Shown here: one piece after another, positions 1-52,018 of the stretch
Layout: every line of letters starts with the position of its first letter
Numbering within the stretch: the first letter of the stretch is position 1
Assembly: GCA_945787615.1 (NCBI GenBank)
Contig: CALZJI010000152.1
Location: 1 to 52,018 of the forward strand
DNA from: an uncultured Chromatiaceae bacterium
GTDB lineage: Bacteria; Pseudomonadota; Gammaproteobacteria; JAADHS01
Length of the DNA stretch: 52,018 bases
Reading direction: 5' to 3'
Notes under the pieces: model-generated
Told to the model about the DNA's origin: nothing
Databases searched by the model: none
The model's input: only the letters and a program-made list of their open reading frames with translations
Translations under genes and position numbers: made by a program

Positions 1-110
1 AATAGCACGCCCTCTTCATTCCATGTCTGCGTTGAAACTCCTCGCAATAGTCCGGCTATTACTCGTCATTTCGCCTTGCCACGAAATGAATATGACGCAC
101 TCTTAACACC
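1..110 (-). repeat. Partial nested-palindrome element (family E), truncated by window start
   Basis: Nested stems TTCATT(15-20)/AATGAA(85-90) and AATAG(46-50)/CTATT(56-60). Minus strand has CAAGGCG...CAACGCAG, as in family A. Followed by TAA (111-113). Confidence 0.55.
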
Positions 111-171
111 TAAATCTCAATCGCCATGGGTATATCTCAAATTTCGGAGGTCGGCTTCGCTGATACAGTTT

Positions 172-201
172 TGTTGGGTTTCGTTCCTCAACCCAACCTA
201 C
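172..201 (-). repeat. GTAG-type REP-like palindrome
   Basis: Minus strand GTAG-GTTGGGTT-GAGGAACGA-AACCCAAC-A: GTAG foot followed by an 8-bp perfect stem, the REP architecture. Confidence 0.65.
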
Positions 202-447
202 ATTAAATGCTACAACAACGTTAGTTGGGTACACGTAAGACGAACTCCGAAACTTGCTCTACGGATCCCCATTGTTTGTGTTTCCGACGCGCGTTTGATC
301 CCCGACTTCATTGCCGGCTTCATACCGTGTCGCGACCCCTTTTTGGTTCTCAGCCCAAGAAAGACGCTTTTCTACTGAACGAACATAGGGTTCTTACAGT
401 CAAAGTTACCAGGGACAATATACCCTTAAGCATTTTCCGCAATCTTT

Positions 448-1473
448 GTGCAAAACCGTGAGCGGCAAAAAAACGTGTTTTCATCAACGATATCTTCGCT
501 GGCGCTTCTTATCGCCAAAGCGATGGAGTCGTACGGCTACGACAGTAGAGTCGTGTTTCACCAAGTCGGGCTTGACGCCGATAAGTTGTACGACCCAAAT
601 GCTCGTTATTCATATTCAAAGATGGTTAGGTTGTGGGATCTGGCGATAGGTAAGACTAAGGATCCCTGTCTAGGGCTCAAAGTTGCGCAGTTTTGGCACC
701 CTACCACCGTGCACGCGTTAGGCTATTCTTGGCTAGCCAGTTCGTGTCTCAAGGATGCGTTCATGAGAGCGTCGCGCTACGGCCGCATACTTAATACCAG
801 CGTAAGGCTGCGATTAACGGAGACCTCGTCCAGTTATTACTTTATTATCGATGATTCCAGGCTGAGCCCACCGCTACGAGATGAAACGATGGATGCGACG
901 TTGGCAATCTTCATGATCATGTGCCGCGTTAGTTACGGGTCAGACGTCGCGCCGCGACGGGTTTTAATGCGCAGAACGTCGCCACAATGTAGCAACGAGT
1001 TTGTACGATTTTTCCGGGCTCCGATCACATTCGCCGCCTCTACGAATGGCTTTGTCTTTGACAGAGAATTGCTAAATACACGTTTGCCAACGGCTAACGA
1101 ACGTTTAGCATTGGCCAATGACAAAATTGTAATGGAGTATTTAACCGATCTGGACCAGACGGATATCGCCATGCGTGTCAAAAACACCATCATCGACAAG
1201 CTGTCGTCGGGAGAGTTTGGTGAAGAAACAATAGCCGATGCATTTAGTACGAGCCTTCGGAGTTTACAGCGCAAACTTCATGATGCGGGCACTTCTTATA
1301 AACAATTGCTCGACGAAACCCGCCGCGAATTAGCCGAGCAATACATTCAAAATTCCCAGCTAAAGGTTAACGAAATTACGTTCTTGTTAGGTTTTTCAGA
1401 ACCAAGCAGTTTCTCGCGAGCCTTTAAACGTTGGAAGGGAATCTCACCGACCTCCTATCGGCAAGTGAACTAA
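448..1473 (+). CDS. AraC family transcriptional regulator (OruR/arabinose-binding-like N-domain)
   Basis: C-terminal double HTH SLRSLQRKL...ITFLLGFSEPSSFSRAFKRWKGISPTSYR; ~340 aa. Start uncertain (GTG). Confidence 0.9.
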   Translation: MQNRERQKNVFSSTISSLALLIAKAMESYGYDSRVVFHQVGLDADKLYDPNARYSYSKMVRLWDLAIGKTKDPCLGLKVAQFWHPTTVHALGYSWLASSCLKDAFMRASRYGRILNTSVRLRLTETSSSYYFIIDDSRLSPPLRDETMDATLAIFMIMCRVSYGSDVAPRRVLMRRTSPQCSNEFVRFFRAPITFAASTNGFVFDRELLNTRLPTANERLALANDKIVMEYLTDLDQTDIAMRVKNTIIDKLSSGEFGEETIADAFSTSLRSLQRKLHDAGTSYKQLLDETRRELAEQYIQNSQLKVNEITFLLGFSEPSSFSRAFKRWKGISPTSYRQVN

Positions 1474-1655: not shown

Positions 1656-2444
1656 CTACCGCGATGCATCCTTGAACAGGGAGAAAAAGTTTGCCGTTGT
1701 TGTTTCGGCAACGGTCTCAAATGATTCGTTGCGTAACGTGGCTATGTGCTCCGCGACATGTTTAACGTAAGCAGGTTGGTTCGTTCTCCCTCGATGGGGA
1801 ACCGGCGCAAGATACGGTGAGTCTGTCTCGATTAATATCTTGTCCGCCGGCATGGCCGCCGCAACCTGGTGTAACGTTTGCGCCGATTTAAAAGTGACAA
1901 TCCCCGAAAATGAGATATAGAAGTTGAGGTCCATGGCCTTGGCCGCCGTTGCCCAATCTTCGACAAAGCAATGCATCACACCGCCGACCTGGTCTGCGCC
2001 CTCTTCTTTTAGTATCCTCAGCGTGTCATCCCTCGCATCCCGACAATGAACGATTAGGGGTTTGGACGTTTGCTTCGCAGCCGCAATATGCACTCGAAAC
2101 CGTTCCCGCTGCCATTCCAAGTTCCCTTCTCCGCGAAAATAGTCCAAGCCCGTCTCGCCAATAGCGATGACGTTGCGGTCGCTTGCACGTTCCACTAACC
2201 CGTCAACGGTCGGTTCCGCACATTCGCGACTGTTGGGATGCACACCTACAGACGCGAATATCGTGTCGTGGTCGGTTGCGATTGCGAGAATTTCGGGATT
2301 GGTCTCCAGATCAATGGAAACGCATAACATGTAGTCAACGCCGTTATCCCGTGCGGTGGCGAGGGCGTTTTCTAAATCCCCGCCGAGTCTCTCGAATTCC
2401 AATAAATTCAGATGGCAATGAGAATCAACAAGTGTCGAGGTCAT
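1656..2444 (-). CDS. tatD: TatD family metal-dependent DNase (YcfH-like)
   Basis: VDSHCHL, GVHP, AIGETGLDY and ETDSPYLAPVPHRG motifs; position after holB-pilZ. Confidence 0.93.
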   Translation of the reverse strand: MTSTLVDSHCHLNLLEFERLGGDLENALATARDNGVDYMLCVSIDLETNPEILAIATDHDTIFASVGVHPNSRECAEPTVDGLVERASDRNVIAIGETGLDYFRGEGNLEWQRERFRVHIAAAKQTSKPLIVHCRDARDDTLRILKEEGADQVGGVMHCFVEDWATAAKAMDLNFYISFSGIVTFKSAQTLHQVAAAMPADKILIETDSPYLAPVPHRGRTNQPAYVKHVAEHIATLRNESFETVAETTTANFFSLFKDASR

Positions 2445-2493
2445 GGCGAAATGTCTTAAACCGAGAAGTTATCGGAGGTATGCGAGAAGGAAA

Positions 2494-2874
2494 TTACATA
2501 GTATGCGTAAGGCGATCGGATTTTAAAGCGCCGGCAAGATAGGTTTCGATCTTATTGCGGACCTTCTCGCCTTCATGATCAGCTGAAAACTGGACCCCTA
2601 TTCCCGAGACGCGATTGCCTTGCGCAGCTTGGGGTGTTTTCCATACAACCCTCCCTACCACGGGCATTTTGTCCGCTTCGTCCATCAGTTTGAGAAGCAT
2701 GAACACCTCGTCGCCAAGTTTATATGTTTTATTGGTCGGAATAAACAGTCCGCCATTTTTAACGTAGGGCATATAGGCCGCATAGAGAGCGCCCTTATCC
2801 TTAATGGTTAAGGACAGAATCCCCTGTTTTGGCGATTGTTGGTTTTCGCCACTTGGGTTATCGCCATTACTCAT
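2494..2874 (-). CDS. pilZ: Type IV pilus assembly protein PilZ
   Basis: LSLTIKDKGALYAAYMPYVKNGGLFIPT...GIGVQF...THTM, classic holB-linked PilZ. Confidence 0.93.
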   Translation of the reverse strand: MSNGDNPSGENQQSPKQGILSLTIKDKGALYAAYMPYVKNGGLFIPTNKTYKLGDEVFMLLKLMDEADKMPVVGRVVWKTPQAAQGNRVSGIGVQFSADHEGEKVRNKIETYLAGALKSDRLTHTM

Positions 2875-2880
2875 AGTCAG

Positions 2881-3897
2881 CTAAGATAGTTGTGATTGTT
2901 GCCTCGCAGGCACCCACCTAGGCGCGTCACTCACCCACGCTATCAGGACGTCCTCCAGTAAAAGCTGCTTATTGGCCTGCCCCTGTACACGACGCAAAGC
3001 ATCCGTGACGCGGTCATAGTGTTTAAACAATTCGGTCAAGTCTACCTTGTTTGCTAAGTCTTGCAAAGGCTTGCGAAAATCCGGATTCGCAATCCGCCTT
3101 ACTTCTGGATTGGCGGCGAGCTTTATCATATCCGCCGCACAGCTTTGCACCCAGCGTAATATTTGCGCTACATCCTGCTTCACCCATGCGGCCGCTACGA
3201 TGATTGGATCTTTTTTTTTGGCGGTGAGATCGAAAAAGTCCCTAAACGCGTTCTGACGTATCTTCATGGTGTCATTTTCGACCAGCGCCAACGCGGCAAG
3301 AGGCGCGCCTCTCGCTAGCGCTAAAAATAATTGTATGTGTTCCGTGTTACGCAGTTGAGCCGCCAACCACGCCTCTGCCAAAGGCGGCGGCGGGACTGGA
3401 AAATCCATGCGCTGACAACGGCTACGAATGGTGGCCGGCAAACCGACTACCTGATCGGTAATCAAAATCAGCATAACGCCCGCCGCAGGCTCTTCAAGGT
3501 TTTTCAACAATCCGTTGGCAGCATGCACGTTCATCCTATCTGCCGGCGAGATGACGACAAATTTACCTTTCGCCTCTTGACTCGTTAGCGCTAAGAATCG
3601 CCCAATTTCTCGAATTTGATCGATGGTAATGGCTTTACCCGCTTCCATGGGTGAAACGGTCAAGACATCGGGATGATTACCCGCATCAAACAGTCTACAA
3701 CTGCTGCACCGGCGGCACGGTTCGCCATTGTCTTGCGGAGTTTGACAAAGTAGGGCATTGGACAAACAGCGAGCAAAAGCGTTCTTCCCAACACCGGCAG
3801 GCCCCGCTAACAACAATGCGTGGGGCAGCGTCTCACTGTGTTTTCGCTGGTGTATCCGCTGCCAATTATCTTGTTGCCAGGGGAGAATGGACATCAC
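2881..3897 (-). CDS. holB: DNA polymerase III subunit delta'
   Basis: HALLLAGPAGVGK, Zn-module CxxCxxC, ANGLLKNLEEP, PATIRSRC; follows tmk. Confidence 0.95.
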   Translation of the reverse strand: MMSILPWQQDNWQRIHQRKHSETLPHALLLAGPAGVGKNAFARCLSNALLCQTPQDNGEPCRRCSSCRLFDAGNHPDVLTVSPMEAGKAITIDQIREIGRFLALTSQEAKGKFVVISPADRMNVHAANGLLKNLEEPAAGVMLILITDQVVGLPATIRSRCQRMDFPVPPPPLAEAWLAAQLRNTEHIQLFLALARGAPLAALALVENDTMKIRQNAFRDFFDLTAKKKDPIIVAAAWVKQDVAQILRWVQSCAADMIKLAANPEVRRIANPDFRKPLQDLANKVDLTELFKHYDRVTDALRRVQGQANKQLLLEDVLIAWVSDAPRWVPARQQSQLS

Positions 3898-4520
3898 GTT
3901 TCCTGAAGCAATGGTTTTAGCACCTGCGCGATCTCTCGCTGGACATCGGCTAACGATTGCGCGGCGTTGATCACACGATAGCGATCACCGTCTAGGCAAG
4001 CCATTTTCTGATAGGCGTCTCGCACGCCTTCGAAAAATGCCGCGCGTTCTTTTTCAAAACGATCCGGTTCACTACGCTTCCCGGCTCGCTCCAGCGCCAA
4101 CGGCACCGGCGCATCCAGTAAGAGTGTAACATCTGGCCGCAATTCGCCTTGCACCCATGTTTCGAGCGTGGCGACTCGGTCCCAGGGTATCCCGCGCCCT
4201 CCGCCCTGATACGCGTACGTCGCATCGGTGAAACGATCACATAACACCCATTGACCACGCGCTAGGCACGGTCGAATCACCTTGGCGATATGTTCAGCGC
4301 GCGCGGCAAACATGAGTAACAGCTCAGTGTCAGAGGCCATCCCATCGTGCTTATGATCGAGCAATAAGTGACGGATTTGCTCACCCAGAGGCGTTCCACC
4401 GGGCTCTCGTGTGACAATCACCTCCTTGCCTGCCACGTCTAGCTGTTGCCGAACAAACTCAAGATTAGAACTCTTACCAACGCCCTCAATACCTTCAATG
4501 GTAATGAAACGACCTCTCAT
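3894..4520 (-). CDS. tmk: Thymidylate kinase
   Basis: FITIEGIEGVGKS P-loop, TREPGGT, CDRFTDATYAYQGGGRG. Confidence 0.97.
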   Translation of the reverse strand: MRGRFITIEGIEGVGKSSNLEFVRQQLDVAGKEVIVTREPGGTPLGEQIRHLLLDHKHDGMASDTELLLMFAARAEHIAKVIRPCLARGQWVLCDRFTDATYAYQGGGRGIPWDRVATLETWVQGELRPDVTLLLDAPVPLALERAGKRSEPDRFEKERAAFFEGVRDAYQKMACLDGDRYRVINAAQSLADVQREIAQVLKPLLQET

Positions 4521-44241: not shown

Positions 44242-45720
44242 CTACGACGTTTTGTCCGTGCTCTCTTCAGTTTCTTGCGCTGGCTGTTGGTCTATCGTAT
44301 GTTCGGTATTTCCGCGAAGATGAATAACAACCCCGCCGTCTTGAATTGAGAGCGTTTCGGCTACGCCTGCTAATTCGGCGATATTGCGAGCCAGCGCTTT
44401 ATTGTTCTCGTCGTTATGATCAAAAATAAGGTGAGTGATGCCTTTTACGTTTTCGAGTAGTGCCGCGCCGCTTTCCTGCGCTTGTGGAAGAGGGAACACG
44501 TCACGTCTACAAGAAAGCATGGTGCGAGCGGGCCATTGGCTGGCGGCTTTGAAATTGATCTCGGCCTCTTCAGGCACGTCTTGGCATAGCGTTTGAATAA
44601 GCGTATCTTCTGAACTCAGGAGGCCCATGGAGATGCTCCTCGCGTAACCTTTGTCTACCATCATAAACAGCGTCGAAACCGCGAAAACCGCGACAATGAC
44701 CAGCCCGCGTTGTCCCGCGAGACTTTGGTTGCGAAAAGACCGATTTACCGCAATTAGCTGTGGTAGTCCTCGATACATCAGCAGGGTTAGCGCAATAACC
44801 GCCCACGTCGCGTCGGCCGTCGTTAACCCAATGATAAGGCCGAATAACAGCACTGTTGCCATAAAATCCTTCATTAGCGCGTGCCTGTCACGGAGAAGTA
44901 CCACCAGCAACAAGGTAATAACGACAGCGCCGATAGCGATGTTCGCCGGTTCGGCAGCACCGCTCATACCGTTTCTGATAGCGTCGGAAAGCGTTGCTAA
45001 AGGGTTGTTAAACCAAGCCACATCGTCTTGCCAGCCCCAGCGAAACAGCACAATTAGGCCCGTGACGAGCGCTGATCCGATGAAAATGGATCGCTTTCGT
45101 TTTCCAGGAGCAATGGTGTCTTTTTCGTTGGCGACAGGGTTCTTCTGCCAAAGCCACGCGAGTGCGAGCGGATAAGCGAGACCCGCAGGGTGGATGCTGA
45201 CCGCCAGCGCGACAATCAATAATTGGATGAAATACCAACCACCGAGGTGGCGGCCCTTCGCTCGGTATCTATCGTTTGCCCAATGGCCCAATGCGAACGC
45301 CAATAACAGGTAGACGCCCGTTCCGATGGAGTCTATCTGGGTTATGGTGAGCGGGCAGATCAGTAACACAGCGGAAGCGATCAGTGCTGCTTCTTCGCCG
45401 TTTTCTTTTCGGCTCCATGAATACAAGAGGTAGATGGCGGCAAACGTCATCATCATCGTAAAAACTTTAGCGGCGACAATACTTCCGGGCCAATACATCG
45501 TGACAGGTAGAAACAGCAGCGTTCGGAAATCGGGCGTTCCGAATGTCCCGGCCGGGCTCGTGACGCGATCAACGATAGACCAAAGCAATATAAGGTCTTT
45601 CGCCGCACCCTCGGTTATTCCGACGACGTCAAAACGAACTAAACCAAAACTGAGTAGCGCCGCGCCCCAGACGAGGAGAATAGCCAAAGCGTAATGGCGA
45701 GTTGAAAGACGAAAATTCAT
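44242..45720 (-). CDS. Polytopic membrane protein, possibly GT-C (ArnT/PMT-like) glycosyltransferase
   Basis: Many TM segments, pattern AAIYLLY...AALIASAVLLICP, soluble C-terminal domain. Family assignment is inference. Confidence 0.55.
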   Translation of the reverse strand: MNFRLSTRHYALAILLVWGAALLSFGLVRFDVVGITEGAAKDLILLWSIVDRVTSPAGTFGTPDFRTLLFLPVTMYWPGSIVAAKVFTMMMTFAAIYLLYSWSRKENGEEAALIASAVLLICPLTITQIDSIGTGVYLLLAFALGHWANDRYRAKGRHLGGWYFIQLLIVALAVSIHPAGLAYPLALAWLWQKNPVANEKDTIAPGKRKRSIFIGSALVTGLIVLFRWGWQDDVAWFNNPLATLSDAIRNGMSGAAEPANIAIGAVVITLLLVVLLRDRHALMKDFMATVLLFGLIIGLTTADATWAVIALTLLMYRGLPQLIAVNRSFRNQSLAGQRGLVIVAVFAVSTLFMMVDKGYARSISMGLLSSEDTLIQTLCQDVPEEAEINFKAASQWPARTMLSCRRDVFPLPQAQESGAALLENVKGITHLIFDHNDENNKALARNIAELAGVAETLSIQDGGVVIHLRGNTEHTIDQQPAQETEESTDKTS

Positions 45721-46036
45721 ATTCGATCTCGATCTCAATAATGCGGCAGACTAATTTTTTGATGGGGTTGGCATGTTAACGGAGTCAGTTATCCCGCTAT
45801 TCCGTATGAAGCACCACTATAAGGCAACAGAAGCAATGCCTTATATGGCGAGGCGCCCGCTCTCCTAGTCATCGCGACGTGGAGTTCTTGGTGTTGCCGG
45901 TGGCGGTTAAAATCCGGTTGCGTATTTTCTCTACCCCCAACCTATCGTGTAAATCAATTCTTTATTTTCGTCTATGGTGGAGTATTAAGAGTAACAGGCA
46001 GGATCTATGCCGCACGGTGATATTGTTGGCCGAACG

Positions 46037-46067
46037 CCTAAGGCGCCCTATTGCAGGGCGCCTTGGG
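46037..46067. terminator. GC-rich hairpin, possible terminator for the minus-strand small ORF
   Basis: CCTAAGGCGCCCT-ATTGC-AGGGCGCCTTGGG, 47 bp beyond the stop at 46114; no clear U-tract. Confidence 0.45.
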
Positions 46068-46113
46068 TTAATCCCTAACCCCAATATCAGGTTAGCTTCT
46101 ACTAATAGTCTTG

Positions 46114-46194
46114 TTAATTGCCTAACGCTAAAGGCAATATAATAAAAAACAACGCTACTAAAGTTAATGTAATTGCAGGCATAGCACTATTCAC
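46114..46194 (-). CDS. Putative 26-aa single-TM small protein
   Basis: GAGGAGGGGAG SD, GTG start, (M)NSAMPAITLTLVALFFIILPLALGN*. Confidence 0.55.
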   Translation of the reverse strand: MNSAMPAITLTLVALFFIILPLALGN

Positions 46195-46555
46195 GACAAC
46201 TCCCCTCCTCGATTTTCCAAAACGCAACCTGACGCTGCGGACAATGAGTCTTTCCCCCGACTGCAGCGTTTCTTCCCAAAAGCCCAGCAACGATTTATTT
46301 ATCTAAAACTACTGCCAACGCTTAGGGTTAAAAGAATACTAAGCACCGATATTAATTGTCAACAACGTTTTACGATGTTGTTCGGCAGGCATCTGGCGGG
46401 ATGTCAGTTATTGACGCGTTTCTTGAAAGAGCTGCGATTACTAGCCCTGCAACGGATGTGTCGCCTACTCAAAGAAATCCATATCGCGTTGAACAGCGGT
46501 TAGGTCAATTTATCAACGCGTTATGCTAACAACTCAGCGAAATTGGTGTCCAAAA

Positions 46556-46618
46556 CTACAATGATACGTCTGGCATGTCTTGCATGCGTGGAGTGGATAG
46601 CTGCTGGTCTGGACTCAT
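46556..46618 (-). CDS. Putative 20-aa peptide ORF
   Basis: Perfect TAAGGAGGT SD 8 nt before ATG; MSPDQQLSTPRMQDMPDVSL*. Confidence 0.4.
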   Translation of the reverse strand: MSPDQQLSTPRMQDMPDVSL

Positions 46619-47069
46619 AATAATATACCTCCTTATGTTATAAATTCAGCGCGAGAAGTTGAAGTTAAAGCGTAGCTTGATTTTGAATTTAGCTCCCCCT
46701 CCAAGAGTCATAAGATTGTACCGCTTCCGCTTTCGAGGGGTTTTCTTTGCCAATATCGTTCGCGCATTTGCCGCCGCGGGATATCGTCTACGCAGAATAT
46801 TTGCAAACGCTTGGCTAAAGGGGATATTATTAATCGCTGTAGCCTTAAAATGAAATATTTGAGATGTCAGGATAGAGTGTTAAATCAGCGATAATAAACT
46901 CTTTGGGGATGGGAATTTTCGTGGACTTAGTGCTTGAATCTTTGGGCCGTGTCGTGTAAAACTAACCAAAATAGTAGCCTGTAGGGCAGCTATACGGCTA
47001 TAAATAACGAAAAGCAGTGCTTTCTCTGCGAATAATGACTTTGCTGTAACAAAAAAAGGAGCGATTACC

Positions 47070-47162
47070 ATGTTAGTAACAAATGAAGTGGCTATTGTAT
47101 ATATTCTTTGGTTTGTCTTAGCGCTTGGCCTAGCAGCGTTGATGTTGAAGGTGAATTCTTAA
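47070..47162 (+). CDS. Putative 30-aa single-TM small protein
   Basis: AAAGGAG SD 8 nt before ATG; MLVTNEVAIVYILWFVLALGLAALMLKVNS*. Confidence 0.62.
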   Translation: MLVTNEVAIVYILWFVLALGLAALMLKVNS

Positions 47163-47364
47163 GCTTAATTTCTTCGTTTAGCGATTTATTGTCCCAACAA
47201 GAAGGCCGGGTGGAGGGAATATGGCTGTCAAGTTGGGGTGTCGTCTACCGTAAGCGCGGTAGGCCGACAGGGGATTAGGAAGAAGATGTCAGAGCGATTG
47301 CTTCTTCTTAAGGTGTTATTTTTGAGGAGATAGGTTCCGTATCAATTCGGGAGGGGGTCTTGAA

Positions 47365-48093
47365 ATGCGAAGATATTTAATATCGGTAACGGCTGTAGCG
47401 TTTGTTGCAGGTGTATTTACCACCAGTGCTATGGCATCTGCGCAGTTTCCTAAGGGAGACGGCAATGTTCAGAATGGACAAGCAATTTATGAAAACGGAA
47501 AAGGGGATGTCCCTGCGTGTAATTCGTGTCACGGTGCTGATGGTAGCGGTGACGATGCGTTGGGCACGCCGCGGTTATCGGGTCAATGGTTTACCTTTCT
47601 TTTGAAACAGCTCGAAGATTTCGCAGCAGATAAGCGCATGGATACGACGATGTTTGTGATGAACGCCAACGCGAAAGGGCTTTCTCCGCAAGATCGTCGG
47701 GATGTGGCTACATATCTTGCAGCCAAAAAAATCGAATTTAAGGGCTCTAACCTTCAGGAATTAAAAGACCAAGGTATCGAGGTTGGTGCGACGAACTTCG
47801 GTAAGTCGCTGGTAGAGTTCGGTAGTGTGCAGTTGTCTGCATGTAAGTCTTGTCACGGTTATGCGGGGCGTGGCGCGCCACCTGTTTACCCGATCATCGG
47901 GAAGCAGCGCTACACCTATCTTGTTAGCCAGTTGAAGAAGTGGCGCGACGGTAGCCGCGCAAACGACCCGATGGGTCAAATGCAGGCGATAGCGCGTAAG
48001 CTCTCCGATGAAGACATCAACAACGCGGCGGCTTATCTGACATCCGCGAATCCGTATTCTGTCGGTAACGTAGCTACGCCGTACGACCACTAA
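47365..48093 (+). CDS. Periplasmic diheme cytochrome c4-like protein
   Basis: Signal peptide (AMA), CNSCH and CKSCH, each followed by a PxL/I-x-GQ/KQ...LxxQL pattern and a distal Met. Confidence 0.9.
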   Translation: MRRYLISVTAVAFVAGVFTTSAMASAQFPKGDGNVQNGQAIYENGKGDVPACNSCHGADGSGDDALGTPRLSGQWFTFLLKQLEDFAADKRMDTTMFVMNANAKGLSPQDRRDVATYLAAKKIEFKGSNLQELKDQGIEVGATNFGKSLVEFGSVQLSACKSCHGYAGRGAPPVYPIIGKQRYTYLVSQLKKWRDGSRANDPMGQMQAIARKLSDEDINNAAAYLTSANPYSVGNVATPYDH

Positions 48094-48134
48094 GGCGTGT
48101 CAATTAAAAAGCCTCTAGCGGTAAGTACCGCTGG

Positions 48135-48166
48135 AAAAAAAGCGGGCCTCACAGCCCGCTTTTTTT
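48135..48166 (+). terminator. Rho-independent terminator (bidirectional form)
   Basis: A7-GCGGGC-CTCACA-GCCCGC-T7 after the cytochrome c4 stop. Confidence 0.85.
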
Positions 48167-48270
48167 CTACACAGCTATTACAACAATAATTACACCTATA
48201 GTCTTCGGAAACTTTCCGCCGCTTGCCCGGTCTCTCTGAATATATTATTAAAACAGAGTGCAGAATAGTT

Positions 48271-48867
48271 ATGAAACAAAAACAGCCGTTAAAATCTGGA
48301 GAAAAAATCCTTCTATCCGTATTCGGGGTTTTTTTTGTCTTGGCGTGTATTGGGTACGTTATTCTCGAGTCGGTGAGGCTGACGTCCGATAAGCCGATGT
48401 TTCAACAAACAACCTTTTTTGATTTCTCGCCGGAAGGAAAAATGGGCGCTGGTATCTACCAGGCCTCTAACTGTAACGCTTGTCATCGTTCCATGCGCAG
48501 CGGAACCAGTATGGGTTTGTCGCTAGACGGTATCGGATCTAAGCGCTCTGTAGAATGGCTCGAAGCTTTTCTTGGAGACCCTGAAAACGTATACGGGGCG
48601 CCGACGATAGATCATGGTATGCGCCCCAAAGAGGCTGCGTTCATATCGGATATGTCGGCGGAAGATCGGCGTCTCTTAGCGGTTTACTTATCTGAGCTAC
48701 GCGCGGTTCCTGGATCGTCTGTCGCCAAAGTGCCGCCACCGGAGCACTCTGAATTCATTGACACCATGGTAAAGGCGTGGGCGCCGGCTGACTGGCAGCA
48801 CAAATACGAAGACATAAGAGTTCGAATAAAGCGGGAGCAGGCGGAAGAGAGTGAAATCAATGAATGA
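48271..48867 (+). CDS. Membrane-anchored monoheme cytochrome c (NorC/CcoO-like)
   Basis: One N-terminal TM, CNACH, GLSLDGIGSKRSVEWLEAFLGDP resembling the GPDL...WL...DP segment of NorC/CcoO. Confidence 0.75.
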   Translation: MKQKQPLKSGEKILLSVFGVFFVLACIGYVILESVRLTSDKPMFQQTTFFDFSPEGKMGAGIYQASNCNACHRSMRSGTSMGLSLDGIGSKRSVEWLEAFLGDPENVYGAPTIDHGMRPKEAAFISDMSAEDRRLLAVYLSELRAVPGSSVAKVPPPEHSEFIDTMVKAWAPADWQHKYEDIRVRIKREQAEESEINE

Positions 48868-49384
48868 GTCGTGGTTACATCCACAAGAAGTCGTCTATCG
48901 CCGCTACACGCTATGGTTCGTTTATGCATGTGTAATCTACAGTATTATCGGGTTTTCCTGGGGAGCAATTATGGGCGGCATGGCGGATTTTCGCCATTTC
49001 GTTGATCACCGATTGCATGGCAATCTTATCGTTCGGGCCCACACCCATATCAACCTCCTAGGCTGGGTCGAAATGGCAATTTTCGCCGGCGTATACTACA
49101 TCATCCCGCGGCTAGCGAAGCGCCCGATCTTTAGTTTGAGTTTAGTGAAAGCTCATTTTTGGATTCATAACCTGGGGCTAATCGGCATGGTCGTTTTTTT
49201 TACCGTGGCCGGAGCGCTGGGTGGCATGGCAAGCGTGGAGGCAACGCCTGCCGAGGTGGAGAGTATCGTTGCTCCCCTTTTGGCGACAATGGGTATATTC
49301 GGTACGCTCGTGTTGCTCGCAAACTGTATATGGGCTTTTAATATCTTTCGGACGTGTGCTGGGTGGGAAAAAGCGTATGAGTAG
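48860..49384 (+). CDS. Short 4-TM heme-copper oxidase subunit I homolog (single unit)
   Basis: AHTHINLLGW...YYIIPRL...SLSLVKAHFWIHNLG matches the helix X-XI region of cbb3 CcoN; only 174 aa; overlaps both neighbours. Confidence 0.8.
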   Translation: MNESWLHPQEVVYRRYTLWFVYACVIYSIIGFSWGAIMGGMADFRHFVDHRLHGNLIVRAHTHINLLGWVEMAIFAGVYYIIPRLAKRPIFSLSLVKAHFWIHNLGLIGMVVFFTVAGALGGMASVEATPAEVESIVAPLLATMGIFGTLVLLANCIWAFNIFRTCAGWEKAYE

Positions 49385-49889
49385 TAAATGGCGTAAAGGT
49401 TTTGGTTCTGGTCTAATCGTGCTTACAGTCGCTATTGCGACGGCTTGTTACGCTCCGGAGGGGGTCTTACAGGTGGGGGCTGAAGCGCCAAGCCTTAGAA
49501 CCAAAACGTTGCAGGACGTTGGCGGCGATTTCAGCAGGATTACCAGCTATCGCTATCCCGATGAGCGCATGTACCAGTACTCTCTCGACAAGGCCATTGA
49601 GCAAGGGAAACCTATTGTGCTCGAATTTGCCACGCCGGGACATTGTACCGTCTGCGATAAGCAACTCCAGATGCTAAAAGCGCTGCTTAAAAAGTACGAG
49701 AAGGACGTTATCTTTCTCCACATGGATCAGTATCAGAATCCAGAAGCGTTCATTGCGTTTAAGGTTCGCGGAGACCCATGGACGTTTGTGATTGACCAAG
49801 ACCAGAAGGTTCGCTTTCGTAGGGCTGGGCGTATGCTGTTCGGAGAGCTCGATGGTGTAATTAATGACGTTCTACAAGGTAAAGGTTAA
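49377..49889 (+). CDS. Thioredoxin-fold lipoprotein (CTVC)
   Basis: ATG 49377, signal ending in lipobox-like ATAC, LEFATPGHCTVC, cis-Pro loop GDPWTFVID. Confidence 0.75.
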   Translation: MSSKWRKGFGSGLIVLTVAIATACYAPEGVLQVGAEAPSLRTKTLQDVGGDFSRITSYRYPDERMYQYSLDKAIEQGKPIVLEFATPGHCTVCDKQLQMLKALLKKYEKDVIFLHMDQYQNPEAFIAFKVRGDPWTFVIDQDQKVRFRRAGRMLFGELDGVINDVLQGKG

Positions 49890-49912
49890 GTTACTAATCG
49901 TAGGTAAATTGG

Positions 49913-50371
49913 ATGGCTAAGAAGGAGAAACGCTGTACGTTAATACAAGATATAAAGGGCATGTGGTGGGACTTGGCGTTGTACGTGCCTACCGTAGTGT
50001 TTTTGTTATCGATTGGGTTTAAGCTCTGGTATACGGCGGACAAAAACTGGACCTATCTCCTCGTATTCCTCGCAACTTTTTTCTTTCTCGCTGGTACCAA
50101 TAGAATTTTAAAAACGCGGATGATGTTGTTGCCGTCTTCGCCCATAGGGATAGATGCCAATAAGCAACGCGTGTTGCTACAGTTGCGGAGCGGACAGCAG
50201 GTGGAGTTAGTGAAAGCGCTTCGTTATTATCCTGATTTTGTCGGTAAGAGCTTTGCCTTGTCGGGTCTAGACTTGTCGGGTGCTAAGCGACAGCATGTTT
50301 TTCACCGAGGCCAGTTTGCGAACGACAAGGAATACCAAGAGATGCGCGATTTCTTGCGCGTGTTTGCATAA
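49913..50371 (+). CDS. Hypothetical 2-TM membrane protein
   Basis: 152-aa ORF, two hydrophobic helices then a soluble tail; 23 bp after the previous stop. Confidence 0.75.
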   Translation: MAKKEKRCTLIQDIKGMWWDLALYVPTVVFLLSIGFKLWYTADKNWTYLLVFLATFFFLAGTNRILKTRMMLLPSSPIGIDANKQRVLLQLRSGQQVELVKALRYYPDFVGKSFALSGLDLSGAKRQHVFHRGQFANDKEYQEMRDFLRVFA

Positions 50372-50419
50372 CCTCGTCGCTGTCTTTCGATAATTCTGAG
50401 ATCTGTGCCAACACGTTTA

Positions 50420-50823
50420 GGGCTCGCTTCAAAATTACTTCGTATTTTTGGGTATTGAGGCGCTCGCCTGGCAACGCTTCCGCGTCCTCGATTGCCGTTC
50501 CCGACGCAATTCTACCACCTACGGTCACTTCGGGCTCCTGCCCTCTCGTGACACTAGCGCATCCATGTGCGTCGTCCGTGCAGTCGTGCTCACGCCCCTT
50601 GCCTACGTCCCTGTAGGCAAAGCTTCCGCGTCCTCGGCAACTGCGTCCTGCGTTGCCCTACCACCTACGGTCACTTCGGGCTCCTGCCCTCTCATGACAC
50701 TAGCGCATCCATGTGCGTCGTCCCTGTAGGCGTGCTCTCGCCCCTTACCTACGTCCCTGTAGGCAACGCAGCCGGGCGAGAGGGATCGACGTCCAAAAAG
50801 TGAATTAATTTTGACGCGAGCCC
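50420..50823 (-). mobile_element. MITE-like element family C, copy 2, with 146-bp internal tandem duplication
   Basis: Reverse complement of 36071-36327 plus duplicated unit (50470-50615, 50616-50761); ends GGGCTCGCTTCAAAATT / AATTTTGACGCGAGCCC; flanks TTA and TAA. Confidence 0.87.
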
Positions 50824-50969
50824 TAAGTGCGGCGGCGAGAGTTAGAACGTAAGGTAGCAGAGACATCGCTCACGAACGCGATGAACCTCGTGGTACGCGT
50901 GCGGTCGAAGATTAGAAAGGTCTCCACGAATATTGAAAAACGCTAATGTAAGCATAGCCGAGCGATTCT

Positions 50970-51407
50970 ATGGCGAAAACACAGCTTCTCGCGGTTGCAC
51001 TTTTTACACTATGCATAACGTCGTCCCTAGCAGATGTCGCGAGAGACAATTTAAAGTTAGAACTCAAGCAGAAAGAGGCGAGTATTGAACAGAAAAATCA
51101 ACAGCAAATAGAGAAAATACGAACCGATCCGGCTACGCTCCCTGATAAGCAGCAACTCGATAATGAGCAGCAGCGAGAGCGCTTAGAACAACAAAGACTC
51201 GAGGAAAGCCAACTCAAGGAACGCACCGGGTTACGATTAAGGTTGAAAAGTGATCGTGACATCGACGCAGCCTCGAAACTCAATCAACAACAACTCAAAT
51301 TCGAAACGCAGCAACAACGACAACTATTAGAGTTTCGCATGAATCAACAGATTCGATCGACGCAGCCAACAACAGGAATTCCGAGCGTATCAGAAAGTTT
51401 AGACTGA
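50970..51407 (+). CDS. Secreted Gln/Glu-rich helical hypothetical protein
   Basis: Signal peptide (SLA-D), Q/E/K/R-rich coiled-coil-like body. Confidence 0.7.
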   Translation: MAKTQLLAVALFTLCITSSLADVARDNLKLELKQKEASIEQKNQQQIEKIRTDPATLPDKQQLDNEQQRERLEQQRLEESQLKERTGLRLRLKSDRDIDAASKLNQQQLKFETQQQRQLLEFRMNQQIRSTQPTTGIPSVSESLD

Positions 51408-51713
51408 CCTTGGTAGCAAGCCGAAACTTTAGTGTAAGGAATCCAGGATCCTTAAGACGCTTCTTTCTAGGTGAAAACGATTAGAAACTCTACTTTTTTC
51501 AATATGATACGCCCGTAGATAACGGAGTATCTATCGGAACTAGCGCTACGCCGTAAGGACCGTGGTGCAGCCGTAGGGCGTGGTAATGGGTCTCTGTAGT
51601 CGGATACTGGTCCGCATGACTCACCAATGTTCCCAGCAATTTCTACGCGATCGCTCCTGCTTTAGCCAATCGCCCACATCCACGTAGGCCCGCATTGCTC
51701 TACCGGCAGTCAC

Positions 51714-51743
51714 TTTGGGCTTCATCCCGCTCACCCACCCCTC
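51714..51743 (-). repeat. Degenerate REP-like palindrome
   Basis: TTTGGGCTTCATCCCGCTCACCCACCCCTC loosely aligns with the REP-like unit at 172-201. Confidence 0.35.
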
Positions 51744-51760
51744 TGTGCTCCGTGGCTTAA

Positions 51761-51920
51761 GGGCCGCGGAAATAAATAATTGTCCAAATATTGCGCCGGA
51801 TTTTGGCTCAGATTCAAGGCGCGGCAAGGGGCGCATAATCGCTTTATGTAACCCTTGCCGCAACACAGAAGCTGGGCCAAAAGACACGCAAGATTGTATG
51901 ATTATTTGTTTCCGCGGCCC
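51761..51920. mobile_element. MITE-like element family A, copy 4
   Basis: 160 bp, TIRs GGGCCGCGGAAATAAATAAT / ATTATTTGTTTCCGCGGCCC, TAA on both sides. Confidence 0.88.
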
Positions 51921-51923
51921 TAA

Positions 51924-52018
51924 GGGCTCGCGAAAAAATAACTTCGTATTTTTCGCGCCCAGATTTGGGTCAGATTTGGACAATCCGATTGAGCAAAACC
52001 GCAGGACTAGCCCGGCTA
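51924..52018. mobile_element. MITE-like element family B, copy 2 (truncated by window end)
   Basis: About 6 differences over 95 bp from the start of B copy 1 (18855 onward); again directly after family A plus TAA. Confidence 0.85.

Follow-up and report, generated by a model that had tools for sequence, protein, structure and literature searches.

Heme-copper oxidase (HCO) homologues made of a single structural unit (HCOH proteins) were reportedly described by Pei, Li, Kinch and Grishin in Protein Sci in 2014; they are said to have proposed possible homo- or heterotrimers with the subunit-I fold and to have tied such proteins to nitric oxide (NO) handling by genomic context. A 174-amino-acid (aa) protein encoded in the stretch studied here, the 52,018-nucleotide (nt) contig CALZJI010000152.1 of an uncultured Chromatiaceae bacterium (hereafter the window), fits that definition, since it has an independent gene and about four transmembrane (TM) helices, resembles helices 9-12 of an HCO and keeps the histidine pair. 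Its gene belongs to a cassette at 47365-50371 that is very probably the left-hand sub-operon of a cbb3 oxidase supercluster that is conserved among Tenderiales, Zetaproteobacteria and related iron- or electrode-oxidising bacteria, with the downstream ccoN and long ccoO genes presumably cut off by the contig end and located on another contig of the same genome, C564.

The gene content of this supercluster has been listed for Candidatus Tenderia electrophaga. Fig. 2B of a preprint on Tenderiales shows a diheme cytochrome (ALP51722), a monoheme cytochrome (ALP51723), a 'truncated CcoN' (ALP51724) and a thioredoxin (ALP51725), and further on CcoN (ALP51729), CcoO (ALP51730) and a second truncated CcoN (ALP51744), which is likewise paired with its own monoheme cytochrome c (10.1101/2022.05.06.490989). 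The region also includes a CcoG-type maturation gene. In the text of the preprint, the whole region of 26-30 genes is termed a possible 'alternative complex IV' and is said to have been seen earlier in freshwater iron oxidisers (10.1101/2022.05.06.490989). Emerson et al. (2013) give 20 redox genes, mostly hypothetical, as common to Sideroxydans ES-1 and Mariprofundus PV-1 (PMC3770913). Transcript levels for Tenderia are found in Table S1 of Eddie et al. (2017, mSystems) as log counts per million (logCPM): 12.35 for Tel_00405 ('Cyc1'), 9.27 for Tel_00410 ('Complex IV (1)'), 8.71 for the 525-nt Tel_00415 ('cytochrome oxidase CcoN'), 13.74 for Tel_00440 (ccoN) and 12.84 for Tel_00445 (ccoO) (PMC5371394).

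A preliminary description of the locus, made from the sequence by itself, had stated that little functional data exist for such single-unit proteins. This is right, and the accessible portions of the literature on distal and proximal cbb3 oxidases and CcoN-like proteins yielded no biochemical test of a truncated CcoN; however, the exact gene set is listed in two genomics papers. The cassette is thus already known, and the window adds no new kind of thing.

The cassette and the cbb3 supercluster

As far as the published figure and table go, the window and Ca. Tenderia electrophaga (Tel_00405-00420; ALP51722-51725) have the same order of diheme cytochrome, monoheme cytochrome, truncated CcoN and thioredoxin, and the truncated-CcoN gene is 525 nt long both here and as Tel_00415 / ALP51724.1. 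The unit that it encodes is 74% identical to that of the Ca. Tenderia sp. loci L055 and L060. Both regions share a conserved left neighbour, and in the Tenderia region as published ccoN and ccoO follow downstream; unlike Tenderia, the window comes from another genome of the same class, and its assembly stops before ccoN. The identity of the cassette with the supercluster is supported by the same gene order, the 525-nt length, the 74% identity, the conserved neighbours, the co-occurrence with ccoN and the long ccoO, and the oxidase genes on C564. The features concerned are as follows (position, strand, feature, basis).

47365-48093, plus strand: diheme c4-type periplasmic cytochrome, 242 aa (open reading frame (ORF), two CxxCH motifs, Pfam)
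48114-48166, plus strand: two tandem hairpins 3' of the diheme gene (RNA fold)
48271-48867, plus strand: N-terminally membrane-anchored monoheme cytochrome c (ORF, one CxxCH)
48860-49384, plus strand: predicted four-helix single HCO unit, 174 aa, with H61/H63 as the HxH pair (ORF, Pfam, AF2 model)
49377-49889, plus strand: CxxC thioredoxin-fold periplasmic lipoprotein (ORF, Pfam, lipobox Cys)
49913-50371, plus strand: 2-TM protein of 152 aa, both helices N-terminal, with a soluble C-terminal domain (ORF)
44242-45738, minus strand: divergent 498-aa polytopic membrane protein, left neighbour of the cassette (ORF)

The five cassette genes, the terminator and the overlaps are where the preliminary description had placed them, in agreement with the ORFs, the sequence and the RNA fold. 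The stop of the monoheme cytochrome gene overlaps the ATG of the 174-aa gene by 8 nt, and an overlap of 8 nt also joins the 174-aa gene to the thioredoxin-fold gene, which bears out the proposed coupling at both ends. The gap from the thioredoxin-fold gene to the gene of the 2-TM protein is 23 nt.

Species genomes yielded at least 320 confirmed relatives of the four-helix protein, with 72-80% identity to it among the best 80. Their sources are Zetaproteobacteria and gammaproteobacterial metagenome-assembled genomes that carry the labels Tenderia, Thiohalomonadales, Ectothiorhodospiraceae or Chromatiaceae. The neighbourhood was counted in these best 80 related loci, wherever a locus offered enough room. 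The anchored cytochrome c lies directly upstream of the four-helix gene in 77 of 77 loci, the thioredoxin lipoprotein downstream in 78 of 78 and the 2-TM gene downstream in 74 of 74, so the gene set is co-conserved, as had been anticipated. The diheme c4 gene stands upstream of the cassette in 54 of 69 loci, and the 15 loci that lack it are all labelled Zetaproteobacteria or Mariprofundaceae. Between the two classes the unit keeps 72-80% identity, compared with 72-78% for catalytic CcoN.

Further downstream, the relatives carry a full-length ccoN (468 aa, matching the whole COX1 profile) and a long ccoO (311-320 aa, FixO). These genes begin 1.7-2.7 kb past the unit in 50 of the 55 loci where at least 4 kb were available, and they lie upstream of it in one further locus. 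The preliminary description had seen an isolated redox cluster built around the unit; with ccoN 1.7-2.7 kb downstream in the relatives, the cluster is instead the left part of a cbb3 supercluster. Likewise, the word 'stand-alone' is apt for the gene and not for the genome, as a full ccoN and ccoO belong to the same conserved region. They are invisible in the window because the contig ends 2.6 kb past the unit. The window is a whole contig of a 616-contig, 85%-complete assembly, and ends without ccoN.

A COX1 search of the genome itself returned two four-helix units as its only matches, which would have left the genome with no full HCO. That conclusion was overturned by a FixO search and a search with the CcoN of a relative, which led to the very end of contig C564. 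The final 83 residues of a CcoN (82% identical) are encoded there, together with a 320-aa CcoO and the gene that comes next in the conserved order. As judged from these sequences, the oxidase genes are present in the genome and the assembly is broken between them and the cassette, and the linkage of cassette and ccoN in this organism is putative.

Where the relatives have two small TM genes, the window has repeats and a Q-rich ORF; these lie in the 1.65 kb from the cassette to the contig end. A 146-nt tandem duplication lies within 50417-51953, with 117-nt copies at 50512 and 50658 that are 92% identical, and an element of about 30-40 nt occurs there in at least four copies, direct and inverted (50417, 50795, 51751/51894 and 51912-51953). 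This intergenic repeat, which resembles repetitive extragenic palindromes or miniature inverted-repeat transposable elements (REP/MITE), may have caused the assembly to break before ccoN. The ORF at 50970-51407 (plus strand) encodes 145 aa that start like a signal peptide and continue as a very Q/E/K-rich body of coiled-coil-like character; no family matches it, and none of the 80 related loci holds a relative.

The association of unit and oxidase also holds across 301 genomes sampled widely from the class. Twenty-two of these have the unit, and 20 of the 22 also have a full-length long CcoO; in 15 of those 20 genomes the unit and CcoO share a contig at a distance of 3.9-4.7 kb. The two unit-positive genomes without a full-length CcoO are assemblies of 270 and 780 contigs. 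Among the 279 unit-negative genomes a full-length CcoO match occurs in none, and a 100-residue partial match in two.

The 174-residue protein and its relatives

The 174-aa protein matches positions 310-433 of the 436 in the Pfam COX1 profile (PF00115) with an E-value of 1.7e-16, a partial match of 60.6 bits against a cut-off of 34.8. With the NCBIfam ccoN model TIGR00780 it aligns over positions 340-462 of 474 and scores 54.0 bits against a cut-off of 583.15. The motif RAHTHINLLGW is present. The AF2 model (pLDDT 95.7, pTM 0.88) consists of four long helices and one short loop helix, and Foldseek places it on CcoN (8smr_E, 9g6b_A and 3mk7_A) with TMq of 0.80-0.81 and a root-mean-square deviation of 1.6-1.8 Å over about 160 columns. 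COX1, TIGR00780, AF2 and the Foldseek comparison thus agree with the earlier assignment as a single-unit HCO protein. With CcoN (3mk7_A, 8smr_E, 9g6b_A) the protein shares the fold of helices 9-12, the HxH pair and a third-helix HFW motif; unlike CcoN it has four helices instead of 12, and it lacks a helix-2 His of its own as well as CuB ligands and the cross-linked Tyr.

The CuB-ligand histidines (in helix 6, and the His-His of helix 7) and a separate helix-2 His are all absent from the protein, in keeping with its being one unit, and no His stands 14 residues past its HFW motif, where CcoN carries H257/H258. The claim that the CuB-ligand helices are lacking is confirmed by this. By its sequence and modelled fold, the protein is best described as one complete four-helix unit of HCO subunit I with the helix-10 HxH and without CuB ligands. 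It is not a full HCO subunit I or CcoN, as it has neither the twelve helices nor the CuB ligands, and its TIGR00780 score lies below the cut-off. Membership of DUF2871 (PF11070) was considered and rejected (19.3 bits against a gathering threshold of 27.4, E 0.0014).

A profile built from 81 four-helix relatives matches CcoN 3mk7_A at 9e-32 in three stretches, one for each third of CcoN. In the profile alignment H61/H63 fall on the helix-10 pair H345/H347 of 3mk7_A; elsewhere on that structure the first His aligns with H60, the helix-2 ligand of the low-spin heme, and the second with H207, the helix-6 CuB ligand. Across the alignment of 81 units H63, G68 and Y79 never vary, and H61 is present in 79 units. 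Three further residues, R59, H99 and H103, are invariant among the orthologues (48 of 48) but not in the wider family. The preliminary description had also pointed to extra histidines in the loop. They are present here, but among the 48 orthologues they vary (H46 in 34, H50 in 44 and H53 in 41) and they are absent from the 33 distant relatives; an essential metal site made of loop histidines was rejected on account of this variation.

The gene appears intact throughout its family. All 52 complete orthologous ORFs encode 168-206 aa, and a protein search gave 790 matches at E<=1e-10, with lengths of 169-185 aa among the 120 matches listed; where those listed carry a name in public annotation, it is 'cbb3-type cytochrome c oxidase subunit I'. 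No 12-TM gene occupies the cassette position in any of the 80 related loci. The earlier view of the gene as intact and not a broken ccoN therefore stands, and the conservation of the unit is far beyond chance.

A phmmer search over 1.84 billion representatives returned 502 matches at E<=1e-3, which comprise many single units of 135-190 aa, true CcoN, and proteins of 390-530 aa with three matches to the unit. Nine fused proteins of this three-unit kind were taken from the representative library (P0013, P0019, P0021, P0022, P0030, P0038, P0046, P0048 and P0066), and in all nine the second His is kept in every third. A 12-TM model of P0013 (pLDDT 89.3) superposes on the whole of CcoN with a TMq of 0.80 over about 477 columns. 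Each third of these homologues is, like the window protein, a recognisable unit with the HxH on its second helix; they differ from it in their covalent fusion, and their identity to it is 30-39%.

A second four-helix unit is encoded in the same genome on contig C178 (locus L082, 605-1126, minus strand). It has 173 aa, keeps the HxH and is 31% identical to the unit of the window. It lies downstream of a 109-aa monoheme cytochrome c (2123-2452, minus strand) and a 135-aa lipoprotein-like ORF (1719-2126, minus strand), and it overlaps a 196-aa Cys-rich soluble ORF (27-617, minus strand) by 13 nt. In the Tenderia region the counterpart of this unit is probably ALP51744, the second 'truncated CcoN'.

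Partner proteins and flanking sequence

The anchored cytochrome c, the counterpart of Tenderia 'Complex IV (1)' (Tel_00410 / ALP51723.1), matches Pfam Cytochrom_C at 1.1e-5, and its ATG at 48271 agrees with the N-termini of its orthologues. C68, C71, H72, M81, D114 and H115 are invariant in 34 aligned sequences. It had been described as NorC/CcoO-like, which applies to its topology and much less to its sequence. Against FixO (PF02433) it scores 12.5 bits where 29.6 are needed (E 0.1), and the best match of its profile among solved structures is ActA of alternative complex III (ACIII; 6btm_A, 1.9e-7), with NorC (3o0r_C) at E 0.016. By sequence, then, the protein appears only marginally NorC/CcoO-like, and the common ground is an N-terminal anchor with one periplasmic heme c. 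A 216-aa paralogue of this cytochrome is encoded downstream of ccoO on C564 (locus L088, 5658-6308, minus strand). Over some 150-175 residues it shares about 25% identity with the cassette cytochromes of L055 and L075, and it fits the 'monoheme cytochrome' ALP51734 of the Tenderia region.

The lipoprotein is the counterpart of the Tenderia thioredoxin ALP51725.1. It matches the Pfam families AhpC-TSA (7.8e-7) and Thioredoxin (5.9e-6), and its best solved match is a thiol-disulfide isomerase from Thermus (3ia1_A, 1.4e-5). Among 33 aligned sequences the lipobox cysteine C24, H89, C90, C93, D94, H115 and D117 are invariant, which gives two invariant motifs, H-C-T-x-C-D and, further along, H-x-D. 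The signal-peptide Cys, found in 33 of 33 orthologues, is preceded in most of them by a lipobox-like L-x-[GAS]. The 2-TM protein, at the ALP51726.1 position of the Tenderia region, has no Pfam or NCBIfam match. In the ESM Atlas it falls with unnamed clusters at 0.96-0.97, and among named clusters the closest, at 0.91, are a PH-domain family and 2-TM families, so a PH-like nature is a weak lead only.

The diheme protein matches Cytochrom_C (9.9e-17) and Cytochrome_CBB3 (1.7e-14) in Pfam and is the positional orthologue of 'Cyc1' of Ca. Tenderia electrophaga (Tel_00405 / ALP51722.1). Beyond its stop codon, the second of the two hairpins has the form of an intrinsic terminator, with an A-tract, a GC stem and a U-tract. 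The fold of 48094-48175 reaches -35.6 kcal/mol (z -5.33), and none of 200 shuffled sequences was equally stable; a scan with a consensus terminator model left the hairpins after the diheme gene unflagged. A terminator at this point fits the roughly 9-fold drop in transcripts per length from Cyc1 to the next genes that can be derived from the Tenderia values in Table S1 (PMC5371394).

On the left, the divergent 498-aa gene is the conserved neighbour of the cassette among gammaproteobacterial relatives and occupies the position of gene 1 (ALP51721.1) in the Tenderia region. Its product has a weak Pfam match to PMT_2 (E 0.0078, under the cut-off), and in 41 of the 80 related loci a relative of the gene (37-58% identity by tblastn) lies upstream in the opposite orientation. 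The 1.6 kb between this gene and the diheme gene (45739-47364) have the lowest G+C content of the region (0.43-0.47), with no convincing ORF and no Rfam family at gathering score; a scan of the whole window against Rfam also gave nothing at that score. The other genes of the window are gammaproteobacterial housekeeping genes, namely fab genes, holB, recG, lpt genes, rpoN, pts genes and mutM. At one zetaproteobacterial locus, L075, the divergent neighbours are a diheme cytochrome c peroxidase (CCP_MauG; 3115-4188, minus strand) and a THAP4-like heme-binding barrel protein (2524-3093, minus strand).

Possible functions of the four-helix module

We infer, tentatively and with limited confidence, that the cassette encodes a small redox module in which a homotrimer of the 174-aa protein holds bis-His heme b and is fed by the anchored cytochrome c. 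A homo-oligomeric heme-b module is the most economical reading. Three copies of the four-helix protein would together form a body of 12 helices built like HCO subunit I, an idea supported indirectly by the fused three-unit proteins, the P0013 model and the match of the profile to each third of CcoN. A heme b would be ligated on helix 2, close to the periplasmic side, by H61 from one protomer and H63 from the adjacent one, and this interface pair would copy the way in which CcoN holds its low-spin heme by H60 (helix 2) and H347 (helix 10). By symmetry, up to three bis-His hemes may be placed near the periplasmic side, with no CuB and no binuclear centre.

The co-translated anchored cytochrome c would dock on the periplasmic face, as CcoO or NorC does on its partner, and pass on electrons from the soluble Cyc1 pool. 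The module could then be an accessory that transfers or buffers electrons for the neighbouring distal-type ccoNO oxidase or, in an alternative role, an electron source for the CxxC lipoprotein; as it would have no open binuclear centre, it would itself be neither an O2 nor an NO reductase. A redox role is preferred to one in assembly because the unit is as conserved between classes as CcoN, and because the paralogue on C178 and the second unit of Tenderia also pair with a monoheme cytochrome c. The NO or sulfur handling suggested in the preliminary description is not taken up here, as nothing found in this analysis points to it.

Several points weigh against the redox trimer. Lipoproteins with a CxxC thioredoxin fold are typical of maturation systems. 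What the fused homologues demonstrate is that units of this kind can build the fold, and not that the 174-aa protein trimerises. The co-occurrence with CcoO (20 of 22 genomes against 0 of 279) was counted across related, non-independent genomes and is a pattern, not a statistic. Finally, in Table S1 the Tenderia cassette reaches logCPM of 8.7 and 9.3 compared with 13.7 for ccoN and 12.8 for ccoO, or 9.64 compared with 12.91 when adjusted for length, which amounts to about 10-fold lower cassette transcripts (PMC5371394). Such low levels fit a sub-stoichiometric helper better than a core subunit.

The strongest rival, possible but on the whole doubtful, is an assembly or maturation factor. The four-helix unit would here mimic helices 9-12 of CcoN, hold heme b transiently or scaffold the loading of the distal-type CcoN, and the CxxC lipoprotein would keep periplasmic thiols or copper chaperones reduced, with the module standing outside the mature electron path. 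The inheritance of the unit with the long-CcoO oxidase (20 of 22 unit-positive genomes and 0 of 279 unit-negative ones by full-length match) is what such a factor would show, and the thioredoxin-fold lipoprotein is TlpA/ResA/DsbE-like. The published Tenderia data point the same way, as transcripts lie about 10-fold (length-adjusted) to about 30-fold (raw CPM) under ccoO/ccoN (PMC5371394) and the CcoG-type maturation gene is part of the same conserved region (10.1101/2022.05.06.490989). However, an identity of 72-80% across classes is rare for assembly factors and is at the level of a catalytic subunit, and a dedicated, translationally coupled cytochrome c, in a pairing that recurs in the paralogous module, would be needless for an insertion chaperone.

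An unlikely further reading makes the cytochrome c and the unit trimer a heme-only mini-oxidoreductase that represents the pre-fusion state of heme-copper oxidases. It would either carry out chemistry of its own at the interface, as catalysis or sensing of O2, NO or H2O2, or act as the electron-entry subunit of the distal cbb3 oxidase in place of CcoP. More improbable still is a minimal catalytic enzyme, a heme-only, CuB-less relative of nitric oxide reductase (NOR) or cbb3 in which the cytochrome c and the unit would reduce O2, NO or H2O2 at a five-coordinate heme at the protomer interface. The combination of an anchored cytochrome c with an HCO-fold protein does copy the arrangement of NorC/NorB and CcoO/CcoN, the orthologue-specific invariant residues R59, H99 and H103 (48/48) hint at extra chemistry, and the reported tie of single-unit homologues to NO handling would also speak for it. 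Such an enzyme would nevertheless have no CuB or FeB ligands, the conservation of both histidines predicts six-coordinate hemes in a symmetric trimer, and the annotated neighbourhoods (5 of the 80 loci) contain no denitrification or NO-response genes.

A device for reverse electron transfer from cytochrome c to quinone, driven by the proton-motive force, was also considered and is unlikely, as the predicted ligands would all lie near the periplasmic side with no obvious coupling. A decayed or split remnant of full-length ccoN, as the annotation 'cbb3-type cytochrome c oxidase subunit I' and the match to just the last third of the COX1 profile might suggest, can be dismissed almost with certainty in view of the uniform lengths (168-206 aa in 52/52 ORFs, 169-185 aa among the 120 matches listed), the lack of a 12-TM gene at this position across 80 loci, the 72-80% identity across two classes, the translational coupling at both ends and the transcription of the Tenderia counterpart recorded in Table S1 (PMC5371394).

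If the redox trimer is true, the four-helix protein would be a natural unfused repeat of the respiratory oxidases and would offer a handle on the origin of their 12-helix catalytic subunit. How electrons pass from Cyc1 to the oxidase in electroautotrophs and neutrophilic iron oxidisers has so far only been modelled. The module would then be a still-unplaced component in the electron path of these organisms.

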